Shown in pieces: positions 42,301 to 51,300 of a stretch of DNA of 64,000 bases. The DNA lies in assembly GCF_056712565.1 (NCBI RefSeq), contig NZ_CM160072.1, one strand, 5' to 3'. The position numbers are program-made. How positions within the stretch are numbered: the stretch's first letter is position 1; each line of letters opens with the position of its first letter.

Positions 42301-45300
42301 ACCGGTTTAAGAACCGCTCAGGTTGACCGACTACGTGAAGAATTTGGTGTCTATCTCATCGCCAGCGGTCGCATGTGTGTCGCCGGGCTTAACGCGCAAA
42401 ATGTGCATCGCGTGGCAAAGGCGTTTGCTGCGGTGATGTGATTTTAATCAACAGGCGGATCTCTCCGCCTGTTCCTGACTCCAGCCATCCCCTACTATTC
42501 TGTCCCTTTTTTCGCCCACTTTTACATCATCTCTTTTCTATAAGTTTTTGAAAATTAGTGTTTTTAACTGTTGGTACGGATTGTGCAGTAATGCGGCTGT
42601 CTATGACCATCAGGAGAAAAACATGGAGAACATGACCTCGCCCGGCACGCTGCTTAGTGGAGATAACGCGACCTGGCTTGAAGAGTACTACCAGACCTGG
42701 TTGCGTACGCCGGAACAACTCCCGGAAGACTGGCGGCGTTTTTTTCTTTCACCTGAACTGACTGTCCAAAGCGTATCCGGTGATAACAACGTCAGCGGTG
42801 CGACGTTAAAAAAACAGGCTGCGGTAATACAACTGATCAATGCCTGGCGCACGCAGGGGCATCTGCGCGCAAAGCTTGATCCACTTGGTTTGAATCCCCC
42901 AGCTGACGTTCCCTCCCTCCAGCCTGGTTTTTGGGGATTAAGCGAAGAAGACTTGTTGCAGGAGTTTAGCGTCACCTTTGGCGCACACACCACGCAAATG
43001 CCACTTAAGCAACTGCTTAACCTGCTGGAGCAAGCCTGGGCCGGTAGCCAGGCTTATGAACTTGCTCATCTGGAAAATCGTGAAGAAATCAACTGGTTGT
43101 TATCACGGATTGAGAGCAGCAATGCGCCACAAGCTGATGCCCAAACCTGCATTGCCCGTTTTGAAAAACTGATGGCGGCAGAGACGTTAGAGCGTTATCT
43201 GCATACCCGTTATGTTGGGCAGAAACGGTTTTCTCTGGAAGGGGGCGAAAGTGCAATCCCGGCGCTCGATACGCTGACAAAACGCCTGCGTGCGCAAGGT
43301 GTGGAGGAAATGGTCATTGGCATGGCGCACCGGGGAAGACTTAATGTTCTGGTTAATCTGTTGAATAAAGACCCGGCACAGCTTTTTGCTGAGTTTGAAG
43401 GCAAGCAGACGATCGGCAGTGGTTCAGGCGATGTGAAATACCACATGGGGTATTCCAGCAATCTGGAAACACCTGCCGGTTCGCTGCATGTGGCGCTGGC
43501 GTATAACCCCTCACATCTGGAGATCGTGAATCCGGTGGTGCTGGGCCAGGTGCGAGCCAGGCAGGAACGCCGTGGTGAGGATGGTCAGGCAAAAGTGGTG
43601 GGCGTACTTATTCATGGGGATTCCGCGTTGGGCGGCCTCGGCGTCAACCAAACCACGTTTAACTTATCGCAGACTCAGGGCTACGGCACTGGCGGTACGC
43701 TACATCTGGTGATTAACAATCAGATTGGCTTCACCACTTCCCGCTTGCAGGATATGCGTTCTTCACGGTACTGCACCGATATTGCCAAAATGGTAGCGGC
43801 CCCAATTATCCACGTTAATGGCGATGACGTTGACGCTGTTTGCCAGGTAATGGAACTGGCGTGCGAATGGCGAGACACCTTCCGGCGCGACATCATCATC
43901 GATATTTGCTGCTTCCGTAAGCACGGACACAACGAAAGCGATGAGCCACGTCTTACCCAGCCACAAATGTATCAGGCAGTGGATGCTCACCCTGGTACGC
44001 TCGCCCGTTATGGTGAATCTCTTGCCCGCCGCGGCCTGTTAACTCAGGCGCAACAAGATGAGATGACGGCACGCTATCGCGACTGGCTGGATAGCTGCCA
44101 GAAACGTGAACCGCAGCCTCTCAAACCTGCAATTCACTCTTTTAGCGCTAACTGGTATGGGTTGACCAACCCTCACTGGAGCGCCCCGGTATCTACGGCA
44201 TTGCCTCGGCAAAAGCTGGCAGCGTATGGTGAAATCATTTCTACACTGCCACCCGATGTGGTCGCACATCCTACCATTAAACGGCAACTGGCGTTACGCC
44301 AGGATATGGCCGCAGGTACTCAGCCAATAGACTGGGGAATGGCTGAAATGCTGGCCTATGCATCGCTTGTGGATGCGGGTGTTGGTGTGCGTCTTTCTGG
44401 TGAAGACTCAGGGCGTGGCACGTTCAGTCATCGCCATGCAGTGGTACATCATCAAACTGAAGCCCGTCGTTATCTGCCGTTACAGCATATCCGCGCTGGT
44501 CAGGCATCTTTCGATGTTTATGATTCGGTGCTTAATGAAGAAGCGCTCTTAGCCTTTGAATATGGCTATTCAACGTCTGCGCCTCAGCAACTGGTTATTT
44601 GGGAAGCGCAGTTTGGTGACTTTGCCAACGGCGCTCAGGTTGCTATTGACCAGTTTATCTCGTCTGGCGAAACCAAGTGGGATCGCTATAGCGGTTTAAC
44701 CATTCTTCTGCCGCATGGCTATGACGGACAAGGGCCGGAGCACTCTTCTGCGCGTCCTGAGCGCTGGCTGCAACTGTGCGCAGAAAACAACATGCAGGTG
44801 GTGATGCCCAGTGAGTCAGCACAAATGTTCCATTTGCTGCGCGGTCAGGCATTACGCCCAATGCGCAAACCGTTAGTGATAATGATGAGTAAGCGTTTAC
44901 TTCGGTTTAAAGGCGCTATGAGCGAGCTTTCTGAATTCACTGATGGCGCTTATAAACCGGTAGTCACCGATCCGCAATTGCATCAGTCCCAGAAAGTTAA
45001 GCGCGTTATTTTGTGTAGCGGCCAGGTCTATTACGACGTACTGGAAGCCCGTAAGCAGCGTGAGTGTGAAGATGAGGTAGCGATTGTTCGCCTGGAGCAA
45101 CTCTACCCGTTCCCGGTCGCAGAACTGAATGATGTTCTGGCGAGTTGGCCGAACTGCTGCGAATGGATTTGGTTGCAGGAAGAGCCAGAAAACCAGGGCG
45201 CGTGGCGGCAGATTCGTCATGAGCTGGCGGCACTGAAAATTAACACTCCTTACTGGCAGTATGCAGGCCGCCCGGCAGTGGCAGCTCCGGCGACAGGGTA

Positions 45301-48300: not shown

Positions 48301-51300
48301 TGCTGTGCGAAAACATCTATCCGGTACGCCAGGAACTCTATTTTGGCATGGTGGTGGATCGTGAAAGCCAGCGGGTCACGTTTATTGTCAGCCCGGAAGG
48401 TGGTGTGGAAATTGAAAAAGTCGCCCATGAGACACCGGAGAAAATCAGCAGTGTCAGCATTGATCCACTGACAGGCGTGCAGCCTTGCCATATCCGCGAA
48501 ATGTTTGCTGTTCTGCAACTGGAACACGGGCTATTTGCTACCTTTAGTCGCCTGGTTAATCAGGCGTGGAAAGCCTTTAACGAACTGGATTTCGCCCTGC
48601 TGGAAATTAACCCTCTGGTGTTGCGGGAAACGGGCGAATTTATGTGTGCAGACGCGAAAGTATCGCTGGATGATAACGCGCTGTATCGTCACCCGGAACT
48701 CCAGGTGCTACGTGATGAAACCCAGGAAGATCCACGCGAAAGCCAGGCAGCGAAGCTTGATCTTAATTATGTCTCGCTGGACGGAAATATCGGCTGCATG
48801 GTCAATGGTGCAGGGCTGGCTATGGCAACCATGGACATCATCAAGCTATACGGTGAACAACCCGCAAACTTCCTGGATGTTGGCGGTGGCGCAACCCAGG
48901 AGCGCGTCAGTGAAGCCTTTCGGCTGATTGTTTCCGACAGCAAAGTGAAAGCCATTCTGGTTAATATTTTTGGTGGGATTGTCCGTTGCGACATGATCGC
49001 CAGAGCCATTATTCATGCTCTGAATGAGGCCCGTATCACCCTGCCTGTCGTGGTGCGTCTCTCCGGTAATAACGCTGCCGAAGGGCAGCGGTTACTGGCA
49101 GAAAGTGGCCTGACGGTGGAAGCCGTCAATTCTCTGGATGATGCCGCTAAACGCATCATTGCGTTACTGAATTAACAGGAGGTTAAGATGAGCGTTTTGA
49201 TCAACAAACACACGCGGGTACTGGTGCAGGGCATTACCGGCAAAAACGGCACATTTCATACAGAGCAGGCTATTGCGTATGGCACGCAGATTGTGGGTGG
49301 AGTGACGCCAGGTAAGGGCGGGCAACGGCATCTGGATCGCCCGGTTTTTGATTCAATGAAAGAAGCGATGCGACAAACTGAGGCTGATGCCAGCGTGATT
49401 TATGTGCCTGCACCGTTTGTGCTGGATTCTGTTGTTGAGGCTATTGAAGCTGGCGTCAAATTGGTTGTGGTGATCACTGAAGGTGTACCGACACTGGATA
49501 TGGTGAAAGTTCGTCGGCTGCTTGACTGCCACCCGGATGTGCGGCTGATTGGGCCAAACTGCCCAGGAGTTATCACGCCGGGCGAGTGCAAAATCGGGAT
49601 TATGCCTGGTGAAATCCACCGCCCAGGGCGTATTGGGATTGTTTCCCGCTCCGGTACATTAACCTACGAAGCTGTAGCGCAAACCACGGCGCTGGGACTT
49701 GGGCAATCCACCTGTATTGGTATTGGCGGCGATCCGGTTCCGGGGACTAACTTTATTGATGCGCTGCGTTTATTCGAAAATGATCCGCAAACAGACGCGG
49801 TAATTATGATCGGTGAAATTGGTGGTAATGCGGAAGAACGGGCTGCGGAATTTATTCGTCATGAAATGAATAAACCGGTCGTAGGTTATATTGCCGGTGT
49901 TACTGCACCAAAAGGAAAACGCATGGGGCACGCCGGAGCCATTATTTCTGGCGGTAGCGGCAGTGCAGAGGATAAATTCCGTGCGTTCGATAAAGCAGGC
50001 ATGGCATGGACAAGAAACCCGGCGTTGCTTGGCGAAACGTTATGGAATGTTATTAAGTAATCCATAAATGAATATCAAGGGAGCATATCGCTCCCTTTTT
50101 TTATCTGTGTGGTAAGGGAATCATCTTTTAATAACTGTGCGGAAAACCGCGCATAAAATAAAAAGGATAAATAGCTAACTCATTAAATAACAAAGCGTTA
50201 TTAAAAAATTAAAGATGGCATAGCTCCTGCAATAGCCAGGCAGGTTTTTTATTTTTCACAATGAGGTGAATATGTCATCAATATCCCATGGCGCACCACA
50301 AAAGCGTCGAATTATCCCTAATCCCGGCCTGTGGTTGGCGATCATTGCCGGAATTATTATTACCCTTCTGCCACTGGGCGATACCTTGCCCGTCGCCGGA
50401 CAAAATATGATCGCCATTCTGGTGTTTGCCATTATTGTCTGGATCAGCGAAGCGATGGATTACACCGCCAGTGCAATTGTTATTTCCGCACTGATTATCT
50501 TTATGGTTGGTTTTGCCCCGGATATGAATCACCCGGACACGATCCTTGGCACCGCGAAAGCGCTGAAAATGACTCTGTCGGGTTTTTCTAATTCTGCTCT
50601 GGCGCTGGTGGCAGCAGCAATGTTTATCGCGGCGGCAATGACCATTACCGGGCTGGATAAACGCATTGCGCTGTTTACTATGTCGAAAATAGGTGCCAGC
50701 AGCCGCAGCATTATTATCGGTGCCATTGTGGTGACCATCGTCCTGAGCCTGGTTGTACCCAGTGCCACTGCCCGTACGGCTTGCGTGGTGCCGATTATGA
50801 TGGGGGTCATTGCGGCATTTAAGGTGGATAAACATTCACGTTTAGCGGCGTCAATGATGATTGTTATCGCCCAGGCGACCAGTATCTGGAACGTTGGTAT
50901 TCAAACTTCGGCGGCGCAAAACCTGCTTTCTATCGGTTTTATCAATAAAACTTTCGGCGCCGGGCATTCTGTCAGCTGGCTTGACTGGCTGTTAGCGGGC
51001 GCGCCCTGGAGCCTCACCATGTCGGTGATCCTCTATTTCCTCGCACGTAAATTGTTGCCGCCAGAAACGGAAGCTGTTGAAGGGGGGAGCGAGGCCATTA
51101 AAAAAGCACTCGCAGAGTTAGGGCCAACCACCGGTAAAGAAAAACGCTTGATCGGTATTTCGCTATTGTTACTGCTCTTTTGGTCTACTGGCGGAAAATT
51201 ACACAGTATTGATACCACCTCTGTCACCCTTGCCGGACTGGCGATTATGTTGCTGCCAGGCATCGGTGTAATGAGCTGGAAAGAGGTCGAAAAACGTGTG

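Follow-up and report, generated by a model that had tools for sequence, protein, structure and literature searches.

Two probable sigma-54 promoters for the two operons of the KguS/KguR alpha-ketoglutarate island in a phylogroup B2 Escherichia coli

The DNA analysed here, a stretch of 64,000 nucleotides from contig NZ_CM160072.1 of assembly GCF_056712565.1 (the window), carries the tyrB–aphA island c5032–c5041 of phylogroup B2 Escherichia coli, which encodes the two-component system KguS/KguR and serves alpha-ketoglutarate utilisation in extraintestinal pathogenic strains. An earlier note on this sequence had placed two candidate sigma-54 promoters in the island and proposed that they delimit two separately activated transcription units. 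We find that these motifs are probably the RpoN-dependent promoters of the enzyme operon and of the transporter operon, respectively. The system is already characterised, which the earlier note had not recognised: it is the same locus as the KguS/KguR island of CFT073 (PMC3694859, PMC5318444, PMC8716947), and the window comes from another B2 strain. The two are 99.25% identical over 14 kb and match in gene set, order and chromosomal site, between tyrB and aphA. Positions 42300-50400 are 100% identical to several phylogroup-B2 E. coli genomes; ATCC 11775, APEC O1 and others are 100% identical to the window and S88 differs by one base. The island was found in 1045 of 5426 complete E. coli genomes. 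Gene starts were taken from the RefSeq annotation of an almost identical genome, made by the Prokaryotic Genome Annotation Pipeline (PGAP), and families from NCBIfam:

42623-50060, + strand: operon 1 (c5032-c5037), one operon by reverse transcription PCR (RT-PCR; PMC3694859)
42623-45367, + strand: 2-oxoglutarate dehydrogenase E1 (c5032), first gene of operon 1
45400-46554, + strand: E2, operon 1
46566-47984, + strand: E3, operon 1
48006-49175, + strand: SucC, operon 1
49188-50060, + strand: SucD, operon 1
50272-52856, + strand: operon 2 (c5038-c5039; PMC3694859)
50272-51771, + strand: DASS-family transporter (c5038), operon 2
51783-52856, + strand: Ldh2-family oxidoreductase (c5039), operon 2
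52845-56016, - strand: the pair kguR and kguS
52845-54203, - strand: kguR, NtrC-type bacterial enhancer-binding protein (bEBP) with GAFTGA
54196-56016, - strand: kguS, sensor kinase

The RT-PCR data from CFT073 define two operons, c5032-5037 and c5038-5039 (Cai et al. 2013, PMC3694859). In the same study lacZ fusions to both were induced by alpha-ketoglutarate under anaerobiosis and fell to background level without kguR or kguS, and KguR shifted both promoter fragments in electrophoretic mobility shift assays (EMSA). RNA-seq of a kguR mutant gave a mean log2 fold change of about -8 for kguS, c5032-c5037 and c5039, a 7-gene group (Cai et al. 2021, PMC8716947). The regulator with an AAA+ domain and GAFTGA that the earlier note had seen in the island is KguR, which consists of REC, Sigma54_activat (PF00158, E 1.8e-67) and HTH_8 domains, with Walker A at residue 175 and GAFTGA at residues 222-227. 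Along 22 kb S88 departs from the window at one base: an A replaces the G at 53612, by which codon 198 of kguR (CAG, Gln) becomes a stop codon, and in RefSeq this kguR is annotated as a pseudogene; if the S88 sequence is correct, the strain should be unable to activate either promoter.

The two promoters, scored with a weight matrix that is described below, are the following:

42571-42587, + strand: P1, predicted sigma-54 -24/-12 promoter of the E1 (c5032) operon, TTGGTACGGATTGTGCA, matrix score 12.7-12.8, rank 10, conserved
50215-50231, + strand: P2, sigma-54 -24/-12 promoter of the transporter (c5038) operon, ATGGCATAGCTCCTGCA, matrix score 15.3, rank 4, start at 50242

Both motifs lie where the earlier note had placed them, TGGTACGGATTGTGCA at 42572-42587 and TGGCATAGCTCCTGCA at 50216-50231, and in each the gap between GG and GC is exactly 10 nt, as in the sigma-54 context TGGCAC-N5-TTGCW. 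Its distances to the gene starts (35 bp for E1, about 35-40 bp for the transporter) also hold with the PGAP starts: the first motif ends 35 nt before the E1 ATG at 42623 and the second 40 nt before the transporter ATG at 50272.

P2 is an established RpoN promoter. The start of c5038 was mapped in CFT073 by 5' rapid amplification of cDNA ends (5'-RACE) to an A that lies 30 nt before the start codon; the same work noted the -24/-12 motif and found that deletion of rpoN abolishes induction and that purified RpoN binds the fragment (PMC5318444). The published A corresponds to position 50242 of the window and lies 12 nt past the C of the -12 GC, at the very position expected from the motif. From 50180 to the end of the start codon, motif and leader included, no base differs between the window and CFT073, and these data can be carried over. 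The 10 single-nucleotide polymorphisms (SNPs) that separate the two strains in this region fall at 50117-50179 and leave the motif, the leader and the core of the upstream palindrome untouched. The start site and rpoN dependence envisaged by the earlier note are therefore borne out for P2 by published experiments.

For P1 the use of sigma-54 is strongly supported by comparison of the sequence, in particular by conservation in orthologous loci. Transcription from it is predicted to start at about 42598, 25 nt before the ATG, and the P1 region of CFT073 shows no difference from that of the window. The CFT073 papers describe no sigma-54 motif for c5032, in which they differ from the present analysis; in the 2017 paper only the c5038 promoter was tested for sigma-54 (PMC5318444).

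A consensus search cannot carry this assignment. Measured against the 16-nt pattern TGGCACGNNNNTTGCA, in which 12 positions are specified, P1 has 2 mismatches and P2 has 3, and when up to 3 mismatches were allowed the window gave 62 matches against 86 expected from shuffles, which alone is no better than chance. This search was discarded as uninformative, with fewer matches than the shuffles, and replaced by a weight matrix built from the 42 intergenic, sense-oriented E. coli sites verified by chromatin immunoprecipitation sequencing in Table 1 of Bonocora 2015 (PMC4591121), from which pspG was kept out. The verified training sites (41-42) score between 8.7 and 21.6 with a median of 15.8, and the scores of P1 and P2 are both inside this range of experimentally bound sites. 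The best match of the window is the held-out positive control, the known sigma-54 promoter of pspG (TTGGCATGATTCTTGTA, 28261-28277, + strand, score 17.1), whose motif ends 35 nt before the pspG start at 28313. Among about 128,000 window positions P2 ranks 4th and P1 10th, and of the top ten matches only pspG, P1 and P2 lie between genes, point in the sense direction and are no more than 60 nt away from a start codon. By the background rate of the window, 0.009 matches as good would be expected in the first intergenic region and 0.003 in the second; shuffled versions of the two regions reach the score in 67 and 12 of 20000 cases, respectively. The chance of a match that good is thus about 0.003-0.009 for P1 and about 0.0006-0.003 for P2.

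One of the higher-ranking matches lies in operon 1 itself. The motif CTGGCGTGATTATTGCG (46122-46138, + strand) within the E2 gene scores 16.3-16.6, above P1 and P2, and five orthologous E2 genes retain it with scores of 10.5-17.4. It was rejected as an internal promoter: it overlies the codons for Trp-Arg-Asp-Tyr-Cys, and coding constraint may explain its conservation. It could be an intragenic sigma-54 binding site of the kind described for E. coli.

The comparison across species was made with the transporter protein as query and one genome per species, which gave 16 loci in which the other genes were then mapped. The full island in the same order was found in Citrobacter (three complete or partial loci, plus one metagenome-assembled genome (MAG) almost identical to E. 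coli), Klebsiella indica, Entomohabitans teleogrylli and Pectobacterium zantedeschiae. In Vibrio the island is rearranged, with transporter-Ldh followed by kguRS and then by E1-E2-E3, and each unit retains its own motif, which supports two independent units: the modules of promoter and operon stay intact despite the rearrangement. In all loci that bear kguSR, the 400 nt upstream of E1 contain a best sigma-54 match of 13.2-17.8 that ends 32-49 nt before the start, and the 400 nt upstream of the transporter one of 15.9-17.2 that ends 41-45 nt before the start; runner-up matches in these loci score 7.1 or less. Six more distant transporter homologs, from Burkholderiales, Azotobacter, Paraburkholderia and an unclassified proteobacterial MAG, occur without kguSR, and upstream of them no sigma-54 motif above 6.9 was found. 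In the alignments of both promoters the TGG.A and TGC columns are invariant and the spacer is variable, which is the pattern expected of sigma-54 contacts. Within E. coli, none of the variant alleles examined has a change at the GG or GC bases. The most divergent P1 allele, that of E. coli 14EC007 (86% identity), keeps both GG and GC (TTGGTATGGATTATGCA); the E1 gene of this strain is frameshifted and annotated as a pseudogene.

Two observations on the loci themselves may be added. The rearranged kgu locus of Vibrio sp. Y2-5 recurs almost unchanged, with identical motifs and percent identities, on a contig labelled as a Flavobacteriia MAG (L010/L011), which is probably a mis-binned Vibrio contig. 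Besides the downstream kguRS pair, Pectobacterium zantedeschiae has a second bEBP-like gene (L012 177-1562), with 36% identity to KguR, immediately before the E1 operon.

Binding sites for KguR were scored with a matrix trained only on the P2 sites. The sites and candidate sites are:

50135-50154, + strand: P2 proximal KguR enhancer, core TGTGCGG-AAAA-CCGCGCA at 50136-50153, centred at -98, top KguR-matrix match of the window
50105-50124, + strand: P2 distal KguR-like half-conserved site CTGTGTGGTAAGGGAATCAT, centred at about -128, KguR score 9.4, TGTG(T/C)GG conserved
56128-56147, - strand: KguR palindrome upstream of kguS, CTGTGCGATAAACCACACAT, KguR score 21.4, second-best in the window, not in the training set
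42374-42398, + strand: published candidate KguR site for c5032, TGTGTG-N13-CGCGCA, inside tyrB at its 3' end, centred at about -212 relative to the predicted start (PMC3694859)
42469-42488, + strand: P1 distal conserved block CTGTTCCTGACTCCAGCCAT, candidate weak KguR site at about -120, TGT..CC..CA columns invariant in six species
42500-42519, + strand: P1 proximal conserved block CTGTCCCTTTTTTCGCCCAC, candidate weak KguR site at about -88, TGT and C columns invariant

The P2 proximal site is invariant at most positions in seven aligned sequences. In CFT073 it reads TGTGCG-N8-CGCACA, as published (PMC3694859), and an SNP in the window makes the outer CGCACA CGCATA; its deletion leads to loss of binding in EMSA (PMC8716947). 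Upstream of the Entomohabitans transporter, the distal palindrome of the KguR type (CTGTGCGCCAGACGGCGCAC, L009 about 9836-9860) folds with -13.9 kcal/mol and has eight T's after it; it could serve as a terminator as well. The palindrome upstream of kguS is conserved in E. albertii, Citrobacter and K. indica, at about 110-130 nt from kguS, and matches the published autoregulation site (PMC8716947). A third sigma-54 promoter upstream of kguS (56017-56292) was considered and rejected: the best match there, TGGCAC...TTGGT at 56079-56095, scores 7.3, below all verified sites, and is unconserved, its GG being lost in E. albertii.

At P1 the evidence for KguR sites is weaker. The published site inside tyrB has a KguR score of 3.1, and we rejected it as a conserved element because K-12, Citrobacter and E. 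coli 14EC007 lack its right half, with the caveat that it lies in coding sequence, where conservation is not cleanly readable. The two intergenic blocks, both conserved in all six species, score 4.1 (distal) and 4.9 (proximal) in E. coli, values that are not significant alone given that 85 window positions score 6 or more. The position aligned with the distal block holds strong palindromes in Vibrio (19.5) and Entomohabitans (15.4), and the proximal block scores 10.7 in K. indica. From these alignments we infer that the blocks at 42469-42488 and 42500-42519, instead of the tyrB-internal site, may be the degenerate KguR sites of P1, and the comparative evidence gives reason to doubt the latter. 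The published c5032 EMSA probe (-272 to +32) spans both the tyrB-internal site and the conserved blocks and so cannot distinguish them. The shared enhancer palindrome that the earlier note suggested looking for upstream of each promoter is clear only for P2; P1 of E. coli has degenerate blocks.

Since P2 and kguS carry near-perfect palindromes and P1 of E. coli and Citrobacter two degenerate sites, it is tempting to suggest that the promoters are wired for different sensitivity, that the tyrB site is not a working enhancer and that autoregulation of kguSR is a case of a bEBP acting at a non-sigma-54 promoter. This last point would follow from the KguR site of kguS, which stands without a credible sigma-54 motif, together with the published positive autoregulation. 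We regard this set of proposals as speculative and, taken together, rather unlikely; if true, activation of the enzyme operon would call for a higher level of phosphorylated KguR than that of the transporter operon.

The remaining features of the two intergenic regions are:

50077-50103, + strand: intrinsic terminator after sucD, hairpin 50077-50097 with an eight-pair GC-rich stem, then seven T's
42450-42473, + strand: stable hairpin after the tyrB stop codon, without a U-tract, -17.7 kcal/mol, z = -3.7
42541-42553, - strand: core like that bound by integration host factor (IHF) at P1, TTTCAAAAACTTA, 1 mismatch to WATCARNNNNTTR, centred at -51
50188-50200, + strand: IHF-like core at P2, TAACAAAGCGTTA, 1 mismatch, centred at -48, A.AACA...TTA columns invariant across species

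The terminator, which starts 17 nt past the sucD stop codon, is as strong as the earlier note had it and separates sucD from P2: its folding energy of -17.2 kcal/mol (z = -5.1) was not reached by any of 200 shuffles. A hairpin and T-run after sucD are also present in three Citrobacter loci. IHF-like cores occur at -48 to -51 of both promoters in most species. At the P1 position Citrobacter, K. indica and Pectobacterium have 0-1 mismatch (perfect in Citrobacter and Pectobacterium), and at -48 of P2 the core is perfect in Entomohabitans; it is only the constant position that speaks for function.

Taken together, we put the probability that two RpoN-dependent promoters drive the two operons of the KguS/KguR island at about 0.87. 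RNA polymerase with sigma-54 would form a closed complex at each promoter, and phosphorylated KguR, through its HTH, would bind the upstream sites. A bend of the IHF type near -50, suggested by the position of the cores, would probably bring KguR to the polymerase, and ATP hydrolysis by its AAA+ domain with GAFTGA would open the promoter. Transcription from P1 (42571-42587, start about 42598) would then cover E1-E2-E3-sucC-sucD up to the terminator at 50077-50103, and transcription from P2 (50215-50231, start 50242) the DASS transporter and the Ldh2-family gene. The two separately activated units of the earlier note are in this form supported by the RT-PCR, the kguR/kguS dependence and the EMSA data of CFT073 (PMC3694859) as well as by the rpoN data for c5038 (PMC5318444).

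Several points weigh against this interpretation, most of them at P1. Its match to the sigma-54 matrix is below the median of the verified sites, with T in place of C at -22 and G in place of T at -15, and the other seven of the top ten matches, equal to or better than P1, are all intragenic in the same window. No strong KguR palindrome was found 70-150 nt upstream of P1 in E. coli, the best score being 4.9 with the KguR matrix, and single IHF matches are no better than those of 18-25% of shuffles. Moreover, we found in the open-access literature no sigma-54 assignment of the c5032 promoter, start site or rpoN data for it, a search in which a report could be missed. It may be argued that the E1 operon is transcribed from a sigma-70-type promoter with some non-canonical help from KguR and that the -24/-12 match of P1 is incidental. 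The 2013 paper indeed predicted its promoters by BProm and did not invoke sigma-54 (PMC3694859), scores as modest as that of P1 occur intragenically, and the kguS promoter is apparently regulated by KguR without a sigma-54 motif, so that KguR may not act only through sigma-54. We nevertheless hold a sigma-70 promoter for E1 to be very improbable. A sigma-70 scan found no + strand site in either intergenic region (42442-42622 for the first), and the distance of the -24/-12 elements is constant across six species in spite of drift in the spacer. In addition, expression of c5032 stands at background without kguR and the gene belongs to the group with a log2 fold change of -8, as for an obligately activator-dependent promoter.

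A different objection concerns the separation of the units, namely that transcription from P1 reads through past the sucD terminator and that P2 only boosts the transporter and Ldh genes. The genes are co-directional, the gap between sucD and the transporter is only 211 nt, intrinsic terminators are rarely 100% efficient, and in K. indica, Entomohabitans and Pectobacterium, which have longer spacers, no obvious hairpin with a T-run was found directly after sucD. Against such read-through stand the RT-PCR across c5037/c5038, which indicated separate operons (PMC3694859), the strength of the terminator, the dependence of c5038-lacZ on its own promoter and on rpoN (PMC5318444) and the physical separation of the modules in Vibrio, and we find it improbable that the units are not truly separate. 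That both motifs are chance matches in AT-rich intergenic DNA, as the failure of the loose consensus to exceed the shuffles might suggest, is hardly credible: the two together would arise by chance with a probability of about 3e-5, both are kept in other species, and for P2 the published start site and rpoN data (PMC5318444) have already refuted it.

With two RpoN promoters for the island as the preferred interpretation, the system can be compared with the classical sigma-54 promoters. Promoters of the NtrC/DctD type, such as glnAp2 and dctA, combine two upstream activator sites, an IHF bend and -24/-12 elements. The kgu promoters resemble them in having GG-N10-GC elements with predicted starts 25-30 nt before the start codon, an activator of the REC-AAA+-HTH type with GAFTGA and an AT-rich IHF-like core near -50; at P2 the activator sites, at about -98 and -128, are roughly three helical turns apart. 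They differ in that the activator sites of P1 are in E. coli only degenerate and in that the role of IHF at kgu is put forward from sequence alone. Furthermore, the kgu genes form an anaerobic 2-oxoglutarate dehydrogenase/succinyl-CoA synthetase bypass and do not serve nitrogen or C4-dicarboxylate uptake. A further likeness, drawn from the description given in PMC5318444, is to MifS/MifR-RpoN of P. aeruginosa, where a two-component system with a bEBP response regulator and RpoN are needed for expression of the alpha-ketoglutarate transporter PA5530; for this Pseudomonas system that paper mentions no co-regulated dehydrogenase operon.

The island aids the fitness of uropathogenic E. coli in the urinary tract by the anaerobic use of host alpha-ketoglutarate. 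The operon structure has been known since 2013; for the transporter operon, the sigma-54 promoter, its start site and the requirement for rpoN have been known since 2017. What is new here is a small addition: for the enzyme operon, a conserved and explicitly located sigma-54 promoter (predicted) and a better-supported position of its enhancer, and further the comparative evidence. These are useful for designing promoter mutants or reporters and leave the overall picture of the system unchanged.

A scan of 41000-57000 against Rfam matched no RNA family. The last ~60 nt of tyrB (about 42385-42441) diverge from K-12 in both DNA and protein (LNAQNVHR vs LNTANVQR), so that the divergence associated with the island begins inside tyrB; in K-12 unrelated DNA with yjbS sits between tyrB and aphA. 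Elsewhere in the window, the 3' end of an MFS transporter gene contains a sigma-54-like motif (TTGGTACGATTATTGCG, 31958-31974, - strand) with a score of 16.0; the next gene downstream, for a FAD-dependent oxidoreductase, starts about 90 nt further on.

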